From Chiloscyllium plagiosum (lineage: Eukaryota), in assembly GCF_004010195.1 (NCBI RefSeq), contig NC_057752.1, positions 948,523 to 968,522 on the forward strand: a stretch of 20,000 nucleotides of DNA. The letters are read 5' to 3'. Below, in pieces: positions 1,610 to 20,000 of this stretch; within the stretch, counting starts at the first letter, position 1; the number at the start of each line of letters is the position of its first letter. The position numbers were made by a program, and so were the translations under genes. The notes under the pieces are model-generated. The model had not been told where the DNA came from, did not search any database, and saw only the letters and a program-made list of their open reading frames with translations.

Positions 1610-2341
1610 CTTTAATACAGAGTGCTAATCAGACCATTTTTGCATAGAGTTTCAAATAAGCATAGTATTTTTTCCAAAAAAATCTTGGATGTACCTTAAA
1701 TCCTGCCACAGCACCAGATTGAAGGTCAGATTCAATGTTTCCTGGATCCAGATATGCAATACTCATCAGAAAGCCAGGCCCAGTGAAGGCCCAGAGCTTC
1801 CGAAAGCTAAATCGAGTCTGACAGGAAAAAGAAAGCCCAGTTACTTAGACACACGACAGCGGAATTTCTCATAGTCTATTCTTATGTCATTTCAATTCAA
1901 AAAGAGAGGATGCAGGATGGGATGTTTAAAATTAAATGACAAAATAAAACTGTGTTTGGCTAACATTCTTCTCCACAGTTGAGGGAGGAGAACGCAAGGA
2001 GAATTCCTTGCCCTTCTTTAAGCAGAAGCTGAATAGGAGAATAAGTCTCTTGTTTCAATGTATGGCAGCACCACCAACAGTGCAGCATAGTAATATGCTG
2101 GAATGCCAATCTAGATGATGTATACAAGTCCAGCAGGGACTTAAATGCACAATCTTGTAAATTAAAAGGTAAGGGTTCTTCCATTAGGCCAAAGCAACAG
2201 CTGTATTAGTACCATATCATCAGATCACACTGAGTAAATAAAGGCGATCGATAGTATTTGTTTGGTCAGCTGGGAAGAATCACAGGACAATGTTCAAGAA
2301 TCTCCAAAGAAATTTGCACCTTCCTGTAAAACATCTGGCAT

Positions 2342-2686
2342 TGATGTGGGGGAGCTGGTCTTGGACTGGGGTGGACAAAGTTAAAAAAAAAATCACAGCA
2401 CCAGGTTATGGTCCAACAAGTTTATTTGGAAGCACTAGCTCAAGAATTGAGTCTGGGCCTTTCCTGGCTTATGTACTTGTGTGGTATACTGACCGTACCC
2501 AGTAAGCTGTTGGAGAAGACGCCACTTTCAAGAATGAAGTACGTATAAAGGATATGAGCACAAAAGAGATCATTGTGAGGATGTAAATTAAACCCTCGTG
2601 TCGGATAAAAGTCCAAAAATATTCGAGCTCCAAAAGCTTCCAAAAAAACCTGTTGGACTGTTACTGGGTGCTGTGTTATTTTTAAC
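2342..2686. mobile_element. Penelope-like hairpin insertion (two inverted 3' ends) whose apex is replaced by captured local DNA
   Basis: Left arm 2342-2440 and right arm 2625-2686 are inverted and homologous to 3524-3674 and 15872-15935. TSD aacatctggcattga (2330-2344) / aacacctggcactga (2684-2698), 13/15 identical. Confidence 0.8.
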
Positions 2687-3245
2687 ACCTGGCACTGAAC
2701 CAGCTCGAACAATAGTGTACCAGAACCGCTTCCTATTCTACCTTTTGGGGAATTGGCTTTCAGGGTGAAAAGCCAAAAAAGATTACCAACACCCTGGAAT
2801 GCTGCGGACCTGCTGGACTCATGGATTGGATGATCAAATTCACTGCAGAGGGCTGACCCCATTTCAAACTTCAGTCACTAGGCATCGCACATTAAACAGA
2901 CTATGACCTCAAGGAAAACAGAAGCAGCATCAGGTCTCGGTTACAAGAATCACAGTAACTGGTTTCATCAAATATTTCACCTGATAGAAAGCACCGTTAA
3001 ACGAAGAACAACAAGAAGCCAGTCAAGAGATCAAGTTACAGAAACAGGGCTTAGCGCAAACATTTTTGGACTTTTACCTGACACGAGGGTTTAATTTACA
3101 TCCTCACAATGATCTCTTTTGTGCTCATATCCTTTATACGTACTTCATTCTTGAAAGTGGCGTCTTCTCCAACAACTTACTGGGTACGGTCAGTATACCA
3201 CGCAACTACATTAGCCAGGAAAGGCCCTGATTCAATCCGTAAGCT
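2437..3245. repeat. Long inverted repeat: arms 2437-2629 and 3053-3245, 423-bp spacer
   Basis: Manual alignment shows no indels. There are 11 mismatches over 2446-2629 vs 3053-3236 (184 bp), and a perfect 95-bp core at 2508-2602 vs 3080-3174. Confidence 0.97.
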
Positions 3246-3523
3246 GATCACAGCCAGGATGGACAAGGTAGATTTGATGTTGATGGCTTTCTTCCGTGGG
3301 TCAAGAGATCATGGCAGAGCACTGGTGTTGTACTTCATGTGACCAGGCCTCACTCATTCAGTTAAAGAGAACATAGGGTGGGATTGGGTTATTTGACTAC
3401 AGGACCAACCAAGGTTCAATCTCAAGTTAACAAGTGATGAATATCACTTTGGTGAAATGGCAGAGGACGACCAATGATGATATGCTCACCTCAGCAAGAG
3501 CTAACACCATCACAGCAGGAACA

Positions 3524-3674
3524 TGATTTGGAGATGCTGGTGTTGGACTGAGGTGTACAAAGTTAAAAATCACAACACCAGGTTATAGGTTTATTTGGAA
3601 GCACTAGCTTTCAGAGCACTCCAAAAGCTAGTGCTTCCAATTAAACCTGGTGTGTGATTTTTAAACTTTGAACA
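3524..3674. mobile_element. Penelope-like hairpin mini-insertion
   Basis: Arms 3554-3616 / 3619-3674 are inverted around ..ggaagcactagctttcagag-ca-ctccaaaagctagtgcttcc.., with an unpaired 30-nt tail at 3524-3553. Perfect 12-bp TSD acagcaggaaca (3512-3523 / 3672-3683). Confidence 0.85.
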
Positions 3675-4351
3675 GCAGGAACAAAGAGCTAGCAAGAAAA
3701 AAAACACAAACACTCTCAAGCATTTTTAAAAAAACTTCTAGCACGCAAGAAAATTCTCACCGAGCTATCATCTGGGATTGGGATCTTCTCATCTAGATAA
3801 GTTTGAGAGTGCTCCTCAGTTGGATCAGGAGATGCTGGAGGAGTGATAGTGCTGTACCTCAAGTGAATGTTTGACGTGCCATCAGATTCTAGCTGTGGTT
3901 CTGAAAACAGAAAGTGATTCAATCACATTGAGACCTGAGCAGTACCATTCATTCAATCAATCAATCAGCAGCCACGCTTTTTCTAATTCCAGGCAATGTG
4001 GATGACATGAGCAAGGGCAGCCTCATTGCCCATCCTCAGGATATGAAGAATCTATTATAAAAGTGTACAATAAGAGCCACATGAAAGCCAGAATTAAGCA
4101 GAACAGGTTCCCTTCCCCAGTGGAAATTTTTAAATATAACCAGGTAATAGCTTTCATCATCCTTCTGGTCAACCAGAAATGAATAAGACCTCATCATGTG
4201 CTGAGATGCTAGTCTAGTACTGCAGCCATGAGGCTGCCAAACAAATGGTTTCCATTCTATCACAAATCAGATACCATGGGATCCACAAGAGGCTTAAACA
4301 ACTGAATTACATATAACCTTTACAACTAGCAGAAACTTTCAGCAGGAGTCA

Positions 4352-5489: not shown

Positions 5490-6935
5490 CATCATTGGAT
5501 GAGCCAACATTTATCACCCTTCCCTAGCTGCCCTTGAGGTTATAGTGAGCTGCCTTTTTGAAACCACAACAATTCATATGGTGTAGGGCCATCCATTGTG
5601 CGTTTAGGAAAGGAGGTCCAGAATTTCGATCCAGCAAGAGTGAGAGAGTGGCAATACATTTCACAGTAGAGATAATGAGTGGTTGGAGGGGAACCCGAAG
5701 GTGCTGGTGTTTCTGTGTACCTGCTGCTTTTGTCCTTTCCGGGTGGTAGGGGGTCACAGGGTTGGAAGATGCTGTCAAGAGAGCCTTGGTGAGTTCTTGC
5801 AGAGCATTTGGTAGATTTCTCATCCTCCTGTCACAGTGTGTCAGTAGAGGAAGGAGTGAGAGTGTTGAAGATGGTGAATTAAGCTGGTTGATTTGATCTG
5901 GATGGTGTCGAGCTTCTTGAGTGTTGTTGGAGCTGCAGCCATCCAGGCAAGTGGGGAGTGTTCCATCACAATCCTGACTTGTGCCTTGTAGATGGTGGAC
6001 AGGCAGGAGAGACAGGAGGTGAATCACTCACCGCAGGAATCCTAGCCTTTGACCTGCTCTTATCATTATGGTTGGTATAATCCATTTTCTGGTCAATGAT
6101 AGCCCCCAGAATACTGATAGTGTGAAAGTTAACAATAATGATGACTTTGAACATCAAGGGAGTGTTGGATTCTCTCTCACTAGAAATGGTCATTGCATGA
6201 CACTCATGTGCACAAAGGTTATTTGCTATTGATCAACACAATGCTGAATATTGTCAGGTTTTGCCAAACACGGACAAGAGCTGCTTCAGTATCTGAGGAG
6301 TTGTGAATGGTGCTGAACATTGCACAATCATCAGCGAACATCCCCACTAACCTTGTGATGAGGGAAGGTCATTGATGAAGCAGCTGAAGATGGTTTGACC
6401 TCGAACATGACCCTGAAAAACTCCTGCGGAGATGTCCTGGAACTGAGATAATTGACCTTCAACAACCACAGCCATCTTCCTTGGTGTTGGATATGACTTT
6501 CACCAGCAGATTTCCCCAATTCTCATTGGCTTCAATTTTGCTCGGGCTCCTTAATACCACACAGTCAAACGCAGCCTTAATGTCAAGGGCGATCACTCTC
6601 ACCTCACTTCTGAGTTCAGCTGTTGTGTTTGATTTGATTTATTATTATCACATGCACCAAAATACAGTGAAAAGTATTGTTTTGCATGCTATCCAGACAT
6701 ATCATATCTTACATAAGTACATCAGGGTAAGAGAACAGAATGCAGAATATATAGTGTTACAGGTGCAGAGAACCAAGGTTGCAACAAGGTCAGGAGCGGA
6801 GTGGCCCTGATGGAAACTAGACTCAGCATCAGTGAAAAGATTTGTCATAGCACTGTCGACAACACTTCCTATCACTTTGTGATGATTGAGAGGAGAGTGA
6901 CAATGTGGGAATTGGCCAGTGTGAATTTGGGTTTT
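5490..6935 (-). mobile_element. Decayed non-LTR retrotransposon (CR1/L2/Jockey group, exact clade not determined), RT to 3' end
   Basis: Minus frames contain TDAESSFHQGHSAPDLVATLV (RT QxGF region) and LGAIIDQK. YLSSRTSPQEF matches YLSSRTSLQEF in the plus-strand copy at 16895. Interrupted at about 6628-6768. Confidence 0.85.
6628..6768 (-). mobile_element. Nested LINE 3' end with (TCAAA)n tail (Rex1/L2-type)
   Basis: Minus strand ends ...ttttcactgtattttggtgcatgtgataataataaatcaaatcaaa. It splits the host LINE, which resumes at gaaccaagg (about 6770). Confidence 0.6.
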
Positions 6936-8384: not shown

Positions 8385-10015
8385 CAGGGGACTGGAGAGT
8401 GGCGAATGTTGTGCCCCTGTTCAAAAAAGGGAATAGGGATAACCCCGGGAATTACAGGCCAGTTAGTCTTACTTCGGTGGTAGGCAAAGTAATGGAAAGG
8501 GTACAGAGGGATAGGATTTATGAGTATCTGGAAAGACACTTCTTGATTAGGGACAGCCAGCACGGATTTGAGAGGGGTAGGTCTTGCCTTACAAGTCTTA
8601 TTGAATTCTATGAGGAGGTGACCAAGCATGTGGATGAGGGAAGAGCAGTGGATGTAGTGTACATGGAATTTAGTAAGGCATTTGATAAGGTTCCCCATGG
8701 TAGGCTTATACGGAAAGTCAGGAGGCATGGGATAGAGGGAAATTTGGCCAATTGGATAGAAAACCGGCTAACCGGTCGAAGNNNNNNNNNNNNNNNNNNN
8801 NNNNNNNNNNNNNNNNNNNNNNNNNNNNNNNNNNNNNNNNNNNNNNNNNNNNNNNNNNNNNNNNNNNNNNNNNNNNNNNNNNNNNNNNNNNNNNNNNNNN
8901 NNNNNNNNNNNNNNNNNNNNNNNNNNNNNNNNNNNNNNNNNNNNNNNNNNNNNNNNNNNNNNNNNNNNNNNNNNNNNNNNNNNNNNNNNNNNNNNNNNNN
9001 NNNNNNNNNNNNNNNNNNNNNNNNNNNNNNNNNNNNNNNNNNNNNNNNNNNNNNNNNNNNNNNNNNNNNNNNNNNNNNNNNNNNNNNNNNNNNNNNNNNN
9101 NNNNNNNNNNNNNNNNNNNNNNNNNNNNNNNNNNNNNNNNNNNNNNNNNNNNNNNNNNNNNNNNNNNNNNNNNNNNNNNNNNNNNNNNNNNNNNNNNNNN
9201 NNNNNNNNNNNNNNNNNNNNNNNNNNNNNNNNNNNNNNNNNNNNNNNNNNNNNNNNNNNNNNNNNNNNNNNNNNNNNNNNNNNNNNNNNNNNNNNNNNNN
9301 NNNNNNNNNNNNNNNNNNNNNNNNNNNNNNNNNNNNNNNNNNNNNNNNNNNNNNNNNNNNNNNNNNNNNNNNNNNNNNNNNNNNNNNNNNNNNNNNNNNN
9401 NNNNNNNNNNNNNNNNNNNNNNNNNNNNNNNNNNNNNNNNNNNNNNNNNNNNNNNNNNNNNNNNNNNNNNNNNNNNNNNNNNNNNNNNNNNNNNNNNNNN
9501 NNNNNNNNNNCTGTACAGGACTTTGGTTAGGTCACATTTGGAGTACTGTGTGCAGTTCTGGTCTCCTCATTTTAGGAAAGATGTGGAAGCTTTGGAGATG
9601 TTGCAGAGAAGATTTACCAGGATGTTGCCTGGAATGGAGAATAGGTCGTACGAGGATAGGTTGAGAGTGCTAGGCCTTTTCTCGTTGGAACGGCGAAGGA
9701 TGAGGGGTGACTTGATAGAGGTTTATAAGATGATCAGGGGAATAGATAGAGTAGACAGTCAGAGACTTTTTCCCAGGGTACAACAGAGTGTTACAAGGGG
9801 ACATAAATTTAAGGTGAAGGGTGGAAGGTATTGGGGGGGATGTCAGGGGTAGGTTCTTTACCCAGAGAGTGGTGGGGGCATGGAATGCACTGCCTGTGGG
9901 AGTGGCAGAGTCAGAATCATTGGTGACCTTTAAGCGGCAATTGGATAGGTACAAATGTTCGGCACAACATCGTGGGCCGAAGGGCCCGTTCTGTGCTGTA
10001 TTGTTCTATGTTCTA
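8385..10015 (+). mobile_element. Young 5'-truncated CR1 LINE (shark HER1-like), ORF2 RT region and 3'UTR, non-functional
   Basis: GDWRVANVVPLFKKG..NYRPVSLTSVVGK..SQHGF..SKAFDKVPH lies before the gap and LYRTLVRSHLEYCVQFWSP..LGLFSLERRRMRGDLIEVYK after it. Has a gggccgaagggcc stem and a (TGTTCTA)n tail. TSD ctactcagg at 8380-8388 / 10013-10021. Frameshift at the G run near 9833-9839. Confidence 0.95.
8782..9510. other. Assembly gap (729 N) inside the CR1 element
   Basis: Run of N. The two long ORFs in the track span this gap and are artefacts of it. Confidence 1.
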
Positions 10016-12433: not shown

Positions 12434-13118
12434 ACCAGAGTCTAGATTAGAGTGGTGTTGGAAAAGCACAGCAGTTCAGGCAGCATCTGAGGAGCAGTAA
12501 AATTGACGTTTTGGGCAAAAGCCCTTCATCAGGAATACAGGCAGAGAGCCTGAAGGGTGGAGAGATAAGTGAGAGGAGGGTGGGGGTGGGGAGAAAAAGT
12601 AGCATAGAGCACTGTCCCCATGACTTAGATTAGATTAGATTACATTACAATGTGGAAACAGGCCCTTCGGCCCAACAAGTCCACACCGACCCGCCGAAGC
12701 GCAACCCACCCATACCCCTACATTTACCCCTTACCTAACACTACGGGCAATTTAGCATGGCCAATTCACCTGACCCTGCACATCTTTGGACAGTGGGAGG
12801 AAACCGGAGCACCCGGAGGAAACCCACGCAGACACTGGGAGAACGTGCAAACTCCACACAGTCAGTCGCCTGAGGCAGGAATTGAACAAGAGTGCTAACC
12901 ACTGTGCCGCNNNNATTCTATGCTACTTTCTCCCCACCCCCACCCTCCTCTCATTTATCTCTCCACCCTTCAGACACTCTGCCTGTATTCCTGAAGAAAG
13001 GCTTTTGCCCAAAACGTTGATTTTACTGCTCCTTGGATGCTGCCTGAACTGCTGTGCTTTTCCAGCACCACTCTAATCTAGACTCTGGTTTCCAGCATCT
13101 GCAGTCATTGTTTTTACC
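12434..13118. mobile_element. Penelope-like hairpin insertion with about 175-bp inverted arms and a nested SINE
   Basis: Arms 12434-12608 and 12917-13089 are reverse complements, with an unpaired tail at 13090-13118. Perfect 14-bp TSD tagattaatgacca (12424-12437 / 13119-13132). Each arm has an HHR-like motif (12501-12536 minus, 12987-13022 plus). Confidence 0.88.
12625..12910 (-). mobile_element. HE1-like tRNA-derived V-SINE
   Basis: Minus strand shows a head gcggcacagtggttagcact..gttcaattcc, a V-domain ctgtgtggagtttgcacgttctcccagtgtctgcgtgggtttcctccgggtgctccggtttcctccca, a CR1-type tail gggccgaagggcc, and a (TCTAA)n end. A 4-N gap follows at 12911-12914. Confidence 0.9.
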
Positions 13119-16318: not shown

Positions 16319-17499
16319 TTCAGCCAATTTTGATTTGCTTCACATGATATCATGAAACAGTTGGAGGCGATCGATACTGCAAAGACTACAGGCCCTGACA
16401 ACAGCCTGGGAATAGGACTGAAGATGTGCAGAACTTGCCTCACCCCTAGACAAGGTGCTCCAAGATAGATCCAACATTTGACATCTATCCAACAATGTAG
16501 AAAATTGCCCAGGTATGCCCTGTACATAAGATGCAGGACAAATCCAACCTGGCCAATGCTGTATACTCAGTCAGTCCACTCTCAAATTATCCGTAAAGTG
16601 ATGGAAGTGATTGACAGTGCTATTGAACAGCACTTGTTTACTGCTCACCGACTGACTCATTGACTCTCGGTTTGGACTCCACCAGGGCCACTCATCTCCT
16701 GGCTTCATGACAGCATTCGTTCAGACATGGACAAAAGAGCTGAATTCCAGAGGCGAGAGGAGAGAGACTTGGCATCAAGGCTGCAATTGATGGAGGAGTG
16801 GGGCATCAAGGAGGTCTAGCAAAACTGGAGTCAGTAGGAATTTGGAAAAACTCTCTGGTTAGGTACAATTCCAACCTGCAAAGGGAAATGGCTGTTGGAG
16901 GTCAGTTATCTCAGCTCCAGGACATCATTGCAGGAGTTCCTCATAGTATCCTCAGCCCAGACATCTTCAGCTGCTTTACCAAGAACCTTCCCTCCAGAAG
17001 GTCAGCAGTGGGGATGTTTGCTGATGATTACACCATATTCAGCACCACTCCTCAGATACTGCACCAGTCCATGTCCAAATGCAGCAAAACCCAGATAATA
17101 ACCAGGCATGAGTAACAAGTAACATCTGCACCACAAGAGTGCTAGGCAATAACCATCGCCAGCAGGAGAGAATATCTAATCACTGCCTATTGACGGTCAT
17201 TCAATGGTATTACCATCACTGAATCTCCCACTATCTACATCCTGGATGTGACCATTGACCAGAAACAGAACTGGATGAGCCATATAAATATTGTGGCTGC
17301 AAGAGCAGGTCAAAGGCTAGGAATCCTGCAGCGAGTAACTCACCACCTGACTCCCCAAAGCCTGTCCACTATCTACATGCACGAGTCAGGAGTGTGCTGG
17401 AATACTCCCCAGTTGCCTGGATGGGTGCAGCTCCAACGACACTCAAGGAGCTTGACACCATCCAGGACAATACAGCCCACTTGATTGGCCCATCTATAA

Positions 17500-18600: not shown

Positions 18601-18757
18601 TAGAATCATAGTCATAGAGATGTACAGCATGGAAACAGACCCTTTGGTCCAACCTGCCCATCCCGACCAGATATCCGAACCCAATCTAGTCCCACCTGCC
18701 AGCACCCGGCCCATATCCCTCCAAACCCTTCCTATTCATATATCCATCCAGATGCCT
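18601..18757 (-). mobile_element. CR1 3'UTR fragment
   Basis: Reverse complement ends gggtctgtttccatgctgtacatctctatgactatgattcta; homologous to 19030-19178. Confidence 0.85.
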
Positions 18758-19180
18758 CTGGGACTTTTTTCACTGGAGTGTAGGAGGTTGAGGTGTGACC
18801 TGAGAGAAGTTTATCTATACCTCTCATTATTTTATAAAGTTGATATAGTTGTCTTTCCCCCCCCCCCCCCCCCAAGATGGGTAATTACAAGACTGGGGAC
18901 ACATTGTTAAGGTGAGGAGAGATTTTAAAAAGATAGGAAGTAATTATTTGTTTTAAACACAGAGGATGGTTCGAGCGTGGAATGAAGTCCCTGAGGAAGT
19001 GGTGGATGCGGGTACAATTACGATGCTTAAAAGACATTTGGATGGATACATGAATAGGAAAGATTGGGAGGAACATGGGCCAGGAGCAGGTAGGTGGGAC
19101 TAGTGTAGTTTGGGATTATGTTCAGCATGAACTGGTTGGACTGAAGGGTCTGTTTCCATGCTGTATGACACTATGCTCTT
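18758..19180 (+). mobile_element. CR1 3' fragment (end of ORF2 plus 3'UTR)
   Basis: LGLFSLECRRLRCDLREVY matches the same motif in 8385-10015. Ends gaagggtctgtttccatgctgtatgacactatg. Contains a C17 run (18857-18873). Confidence 0.85.
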
Positions 19181-19767
19181 CCTTAAAAGGTGGTAGAAGT
19201 TAGAAGTTAGAGAGGTCCAAAGACCATCAACATTTTAAAAAATACCGACTGTGTTTTAAATGGGCAATCCTTGATTGTTAAGCAGTGACCATAGTTTAAG
19301 ATTCTCCAAGAGGAAACATCTTTTCCCTATCTACCCTGTCAAGTTCCCTCAGGATTTTGTGTGCTTTAATCAAGTCACCCTTTACTGTTGTAAACTCCAG
19401 TGACTACAAATCCAGCCTGTCCAACCTTTCCTAATGAGATAACCAAAACATTCCAGTCATTAGTTTTGTCAACCTTCCCTGAACAGCCTTCATTTCCATC
19501 CTTCCTTAAATAATCCTGTGTACAGTACTCCAGCTGCAGTCTCACCAGTGCCCTGTATAACTGAAGCACAATTTCCCTTCTTTCTCATACTCAATTCACC
19601 TCAAAAATTAAATAATGTTCTAATAGATTTCTTCATTCTTATTGTGCCTGCATACTAACTTTTTACAATTCATGCACAAGGACACCCAGATCCCTCTGCA
19701 ATCTCTCACCATGTGATGATATGGTTCTTTTTCATTCTAAATCTATTAGAATATTATTTAATTTTTG

Positions 19768-20000
19768 AGGTGGATTGAGTATGAGAAAGAAGGGAAAGTC
19801 TCAGATACAGTCACATAGATGGGTTAACTCCAGGAAGGGTGAGAGAGGTCGGCACCTAGAGCAGGAGTCTTTTGTGGATATACCCATTTCAAACAGGTAT
19901 GCTGTTTTGGAAAATGTAAGGGGTGAAGGATTCTTAGGGGAACGTAGAACAAACAGCCAAGTTTCTGGTATTGAGACTGGCTCTAATGCAACGAGGGGTA
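19768..20000 (+). mobile_element. CR1 ORF1 fragment running off the window edge
   Basis: Stop-free frame from 19781: MRKKGKSQIQSHRWVNSRKGERGRHLEQESFVDIPISNRYAVLENVRGEG... The WV..RK and IP.SNRY.VL motifs are typical of the linker before the esterase domain of CR1 ORF1. Confidence 0.7.

Follow-up and report, generated by a model that had tools for sequence, protein, structure and literature searches.

The window, by which we mean the whole 20,000-nt stretch of the Chiloscyllium plagiosum genome analysed here, carries one exon of a minus-strand host gene for an NRAMP2/NRAMP1-like (SLC11) metal transporter, assigned by sequence match (40 of 41 residues matching NRAMP2 of PDB 9f6n, E=6.8e-21; NRAMP1, E=1.6e-19), and 5' of this exon, at a position that is thus most likely intronic, lies a structure built from two inverted arms of a Penelope-like element (PLE) within a TSD (Table 1). 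As the initial annotation had described, the arms enclose a 193-nt segment that is the gap-free reverse complement of a segment 423 nt away; the two copies differ at 14 positions (93% identity), and the TSD copies agree at 13 of 15 positions, 3 nt at either end of the TSD being readable as PLE too. The two arms are 81% alike over 48 nt. The 5' truncation of the long arm, which is 78% identical to the sister element, falls on the AGCT palindrome of the minimal hammerhead, and both arms stop before the CUGAUGA core, so that the copy at 2342-2686 holds no complete ribozyme. The 2-nt centre reported for the sister was found as described, and this hairpin proved in addition to have a perfect TSD. 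At the left junction, where donor/PLE microhomology had been proposed, 9 of 10 donor nt agree with those by which the PLE continues. Two caveats apply: the filler has diverged from the donor at this point (3 of the following 6 nt are unlike it), and an equally good match to the PLE continuation, 9/10, turns up at some point in 30 of the 180 4-kb flanks sampled. The minus-strand RNA of the locus has a predicted fold of -464 kcal/mol (z=-32).

Table 1. Features of the PLE locus and its surroundings (positions in the window)
Feature	Position	Strand	Remarks
Exon, NRAMP2/NRAMP1-like (SLC11) metal transporter host gene	~1692-1814	-	Sequence match
Left TSD copy	2330-2344	.	13/15 identical to 2684-2698; last 3 nt double as start of PLE tail
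PLE 3' end, long arm with ~38-nt tail	2342-2440	-	Aligns to 1-96 of the natural PLE reference copy from L012
Inverted copy of 3053-3245, proposed templated filler	2437-2629	-	4-nt overlap with left arm
Perfect 95-bp core of inverted repeat	2508-2602	.	Mismatch clustering p=0.0004
Inverted short PLE arm, tail-less	~2626-2686	+	6-nt deletion after AAAGCT
Right TSD copy	2684-2698	.	13/15 identical to 2330-2344
Proposed donor: low-copy, most likely intronic DNA	3053-3245	+	367 bp from right end of element
Sister PLE hairpin without filler	3524-3674	-	2-nt centre; perfect 12-bp TSD 3512-3523 / 3672-3683

A genome DNA search with the 193-bp segment, which skips very common words, returned 2 places only, the donor and the filler; exactly two local matches had been foreseen for a local capture, and the result rules against a dispersed repeat. 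Donor, spacer and right flank gave no BLAST match in 1.43 Mb of fetched loci, and no Pfam family was obtained for three frames over or near the donor or for the frame over the filler. Accordingly, a coding or transposon nature of the donor was rejected for want of a Pfam family in its frames, as was a MITE or dispersed repeat with terminal inverted repeats, given 2 matches in the genome and 0 in the 1.43 Mb of loci.

Several other inverted repeats are present in the window. Segments 19572-19630 and 19739-19797 form a 59-bp inverted repeat (97% identity, 108 nt apart) that has no PLE arms; its arm is without a match in 1.43 Mb of other loci while its spacer matches 7 loci, and it has the appearance of an inverted duplication of local DNA that arose without a PLE. 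A hairpin of a second hammerhead-type family occupies 12434-13089; its arms measure 163-175 bp (93-94% identity), a motif repeated in its flanks is reminiscent of a TSD, its centre holds a SINE-like insert, and a 4-N gap lies at 12911-12914. The inverted copies of a common repeat at 18613-18757 and 19032-19175 (80% alike, 116 loci matched) are probably independent insertions, and long repeat fragments at 5877-6628 and 16731-17486 are inverted, 70% alike and 10 kb apart. A longer N gap lies at 8782-9510.

The arms represent the 3' terminus of a retroelement that is abundant in the genome and for which 2938 exact-anchor head-to-head pairs with spacers of 1-84 nt, 353 with spacers of 85-149 nt, 266 with 150-260 nt and 272 with 261-420 nt were counted in the genome (13-nt anchors were used for the last class; reversed-pattern controls gave 0). 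The usual insertion unit of EN+ PLEs is an inverted 5'-truncated pLTR with a one-sided tail of 30-40 bp, according to Craig et al. 2021 (PMC8557442), and the locus resembles it in its head-to-head arms (an inverted 5'-truncated terminal copy beside the main copy), in its one-sided tail (38 nt on the left arm, none on the right) and in its TSD (12/12 in the sister). The minimal hammerhead known from PLE pLTRs, CUGAUGA...GAAA with palindromic 15.2-16.2 (PMC4209133), was read by eye as a putative motif in longer copies of the family, and Rfam gave no hammerhead match in the window at E<=1. In the decayed copy at locus L125 the same terminal repeat is linked to RT-like and GIY-YIG-like fragments with weak profile support: Pfam returned 0 families for four L125 pieces and a weak RVT_1 match (E=0.029) for a piece of L102, Atlas gave RT-linked clusters at 0.92-0.97 for one piece and no match for the other, and a walk along the PLE from the terminal repeat did not reach an ORF. 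Because the RT/GIY-YIG link has this weak profile support, the PLE label is based mainly on architecture. What differs from the EN+ PLE unit is the neighbouring host DNA between the arms, undescribed in the available parts of the accounts concerned (PMC8557442, PMC11167929).

The assembly was checked against contigs of four public runs over 2200-3400, among which no listed contig spans the whole stretch. A contig from another study of the same organism shows 0 differences over 2573-3109, an interval which takes in the right junction together with the short arm, the TSD and the first part of the donor; organism B (two runs) and organism C (one run) gave contigs over about the same interval with 12-24 differences, and the left junction is crossed by one organism C contig (2413-2500). 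Since the same structure is found in contigs of three organisms, it is not an assembly error, which the initial annotation had named as a refuting outcome, and the filler-bearing structure is, by the contigs, older than the split of the three. It is therefore hardly credible that the structure is an artefact or the product of two independent insertions of a dispersed repeat or of MITE arms, even though the assembly consists of 101,977 contigs with gaps and short-read assemblies are known to struggle with PLE inverted structures (PMC8557442): besides the contigs over both junctions, the 14 differences between the copies speak against an artefact and the presence of only 2 genomic matches against a dispersed repeat. 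Neither an empty site nor a filler-free orthologue was seen among the listed contigs of the four runs over 2200-3400; contig joints that skip 2440-2636 were rejected as an empty site, for they have sides of about 20 nt with PLE letters between them and come from other PLE copies. The listed organism A pieces leave 2446-2570 uncovered, which has no bearing on the question.

The initial annotation had suggested that other PLE hairpins might hold apex inserts matching nearby DNA. The centres of the first 50 listed hairpins of each of two long-spacer classes were searched against their own flanks (on either side, 1.5 kb at 12 loci and about 3.8 kb at the other 88), and a capture was kept only if the own-flank match was more than 15% better than the best match in any other fetched locus. 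A local copy, of DNA within 1.5 kb, was detected in 4 of 50 and 3 of 50 of these unselected hairpins, as against 0 of 16 and 1 doubtful case among 15 in the shorter-spacer classes, which scales to about 38 of the 3829 exact-anchor hairpins, or about 1%. Unselected off-centre hairpins yielded no capture in 48 (16 of this family and 32 of the second; 95% upper bound 7%). Combined with a density of about 23 hairpins per Mb (16 in 0.70 Mb), the rate of about 1% suggests several hundred to a thousand captures genome-wide, a rough figure. Enriched searches with loci picked by eye, which by their nature yield no rate, raised the set to 33, and 20 further picks added 14 to give a total of 47, that is 46 besides the focal one. 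Left out of this total were L069 (a tandem duplication including an arm), L167 (no proper left arm), L255 (a satellite array) and L103 and L119 (PLE matched to PLE), while L293 (several local copies) and L256 (part PLE) were kept though ambiguous.

The 47 captures comprise 24 inverted and 23 direct copies, with inserts of 31-351 bp and donors 2-1689 bp away; in the first 33 cases the median donor distance is 466 bp and only one donor lies within 15 bp. A near twin of the focal locus is L120 (239 bp, inverted, 295 bp away, 92% identical). All captures have donors closer than 1.7 kb, with 3-4.8 kb searched on each side at most loci. Local capture is a real and recurrent by-product of PLE insertion, and the analysis supports the local, microhomology-type template switching that had been proposed. 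The further proposal that PLE hairpins manufacture inverted repeats of host sequence holds for the 24 inverted cases, but inversion is only one outcome, the other being the 23 direct copies, and a preference for inverted copies was rejected. Some centres are filled otherwise. For many non-PLE fillers, about 70-400 bp long, the search of 3-4.8 kb turned up no donor (e.g. L211, L212, L214, L218, L253, L264, L275 and L276; 6 of 20 in the second picked set), and their donors may be farther off or deleted; other fillers are repeats such as SINEs (L022, L122). At L055 the filler at 3903-4062 begins with an inverted local copy of 111 bp and continues with a 49-bp fold-back onto that donor, which amounts to two template switches, and L136 has two different donors. 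At L102 (3881-4093) and in the centre of L091 the filler consists of internal pieces of the element's own ORF, and the same joining step thus appears to draw also on element sequence.

As to polarity, an early count by eye placed 11 of 13 donors on one side with respect to the tail, and this disappeared with more cases (tail-less side 24 of 44, p=0.65). In assembly coordinates, 34 of the 47 donors lie to the right (p=0.003), as do 9 of the 14 in the second set (p=0.42); no model predicts such an excess, which is possibly due to chance or ascertainment. The special role initially assigned to the AGCT/GAAA ribozyme site was not upheld: none of the arm ends of the 7 unselected captures falls on the AGCT palindrome or cleavage site (reference position 96), the ends lying at about positions 106-201, and the enriched sets, biased by the search anchors, are uninformative on a hotspot there. 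By a rough count made with no control, about 21 of 66 junctions show a PLE-donor overlap of at least 2 nt, the others being blunt or carrying extra bases.

The age of the fillers was compared with that of the elements in the 40 of the 47 captures that were long enough. Mean non-CpG divergence is 7.2% between insert and donor and 7.5% between the arms (Wilcoxon p=0.76), and the two values are correlated (Spearman 0.48, p=0.002, n=40); in the youngest elements the insert hardly differs from its donor (L274: arms 0/90, insert 1/103; L136: arms 1/92, insert 2/181). We therefore favour the view that the captures date from insertion or very soon after, with the caveats that the arms may stem from different RNAs and that a break soon after insertion would look alike. 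With such matched ages the apex, which the initial annotation took to have been replaced, probably never existed. The focal repeat has a history of its own after capture: 13 of its 14 mismatches lie in the outer quarters (permutation p=0.0004, the strongest of 18 cases tested), the ends of the insert differing at 13 of 71 sites and the middle at 1 of 122, while the PLE arms differ at 8 of 51, similar to the ends. Together with the mirror positions 2567 and 3115, which judging from contig ends appear to differ jointly in organism B, this clustering indicates that the core was probably homogenised later by gene conversion between the two host-DNA arms. General junction hypermutation as a cause of end-clustered mismatches was rejected, the effect being seen only in the focal case and weakly in L209 (p=0.03) among the 18.

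We consider it rather probable that the 193-bp segment was copied from chromosomal DNA nearby, as a filler, while the insertion closed. In an in-vitro study of an anole PLE, whose authors describe the steps after priming as unvalidated, the protein cut both strands of the target and extended them, with two RNA start sites one tail apart and uncleaved RNA (Frangieh et al. 2024, PMC11167929); cleavage and extension of both strands would leave two cDNA 3' ends in need of joining. In the proposed sequence of events, the PLE protein would nick both strands to give the TSD, cDNA would be primed from each end, one tailed and one tail-less, and the two cDNA 3' ends would usually be joined directly to give a hairpin. 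About 1% of events would deviate from this, in that one of the 3' ends first pairs over a few bases with DNA no more than about 1.7 kb away, is extended by 30-350 nt, is released and then anneals to the other cDNA. At the focal locus the right-hand cDNA, ending in the stem II palindrome, would have folded back on its own strand at 3053, copied from 3053 to 3245 and then joined the left cDNA at AGCT, which would give the observed order, and later sequence exchange between the two host-DNA arms would have produced the homogenised core. Direct copies could arise by loop-out or cross-break annealing; snap-back and loop-out synthesis are reported to yield inverted and direct fillers in break repair (PMC5728401).

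Against a filler made during integration stand the lack of tail-side donor polarity and the far shorter reach of known templates, about 30 bp in SD-MMEJ and typically 15 bp in L1; the age match, moreover, fits equally a cruciform break soon after insertion, when the arms were still perfect. Palindromes undergo centre-break repair, and the structure could have begun as a clean PLE hairpin whose young perfect palindrome formed a cruciform, was cut at its centre and was repaired with locally templated filler. This course, which we regard as unlikely though not negligible, predicts both filler orientations and no tail polarity, as observed, and the sister hairpin, pivoting on a decayed AGCGCT palindrome, indicates that near-perfect palindromes do form; breaks spread over the lifetime of the hairpins, however, should give an insert/arm divergence ratio near 0.5 and the observed ratio is about 1, so that only breaks very soon after insertion fit the age test, and most of the ordinary listed hairpins have, by eye, asymmetric centres like those of joined, differently truncated cDNAs.

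More improbable still, in our estimate, is a change of template by the PLE reverse transcriptase, from the element's RNA to nascent pre-mRNA of the host gene, with the 193 nt copied from intronic RNA. The host gene lies on the minus strand, and a right-hand cDNA extended on its pre-mRNA would give the inverted copy observed; rotifer PLEs are moreover reported to capture intron-containing host sequence (PMC3846280). Yet no observation made here demands RNA, and the restriction of donors to less than 1.7 kb, despite 3-4.8 kb having been searched, suits a tethered template, even if a nascent transcript is still compatible with it. Joining of the two cDNAs through a locally templated filler is the reading that we prefer.

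The general process is already known from L1 and from break repair. L1 'templated insertions', made in the course of integration, consist of local DNA, mostly shorter than 250 bp, and were found in 22 of about 3,600 tumour insertions, with templates typically within 15 bp of the site (bioRxiv 10.1101/2024.08.27.596794). They resemble the PLE captures in that local non-element DNA is copied into the element, at a rate similar to the 1% or so estimated here, and in L1 twin priming two cDNAs are joined by microcomplementarity, as is proposed here for PLE. The captures differ in the distance of the donor (367 bp at the focal locus and up to 1.7 kb at others, against 15 bp) and, unlike the L1 set, are germline, fixed and located at the 5'-5' junction of the PLE. 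SD-MMEJ (PMC5728401) is likewise expected to yield local copies in either orientation, inverted or direct, bounded by short microhomology on both sides, but the fillers described for it are small and their priming takes place no farther than about 30 bp from the break, whereas those of PLE measure 31-351 bp with donors up to 1.7 kb away and are nearer in scale to synthesis-dependent strand annealing. In the Adineta vaga Penelope elements (PMC3846280) unrelated host sequence is also framed by pLTRs and a TSD; there genes were moved in trans between direct pLTRs, whereas here the donor adjoins the insertion and nothing was moved far. Within a literature search of incomplete coverage, no account of local fillers in PLE inverted junctions was found, the nearest being PMC3846280; the present analysis adds a capture rate, the balance between orientations, the range of donor distances and the agreement in age.

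Fillers that lie at the 5'-5' junction and are as old as the insertion point to a repair-like joining of two free cDNA ends, and on this view a PLE transposition assay should show fillers at a measurable rate. On a broader reading, to which we give slightly less than even credence, the intermediate of PLE integration would be open and double-ended, its cDNA 3' ends scanning some 1.7 kb of flank, and integration would have written several hundred to a thousand local duplications into shark-type genomes, half of them inverted repeats able to fold pre-mRNA into long double-stranded stems and then subject to concerted evolution by gene conversion, the fillers being a fossil read-out of the PLE joining step. 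The PLE captures also represent a small, steady source of intronic inverted repeats.
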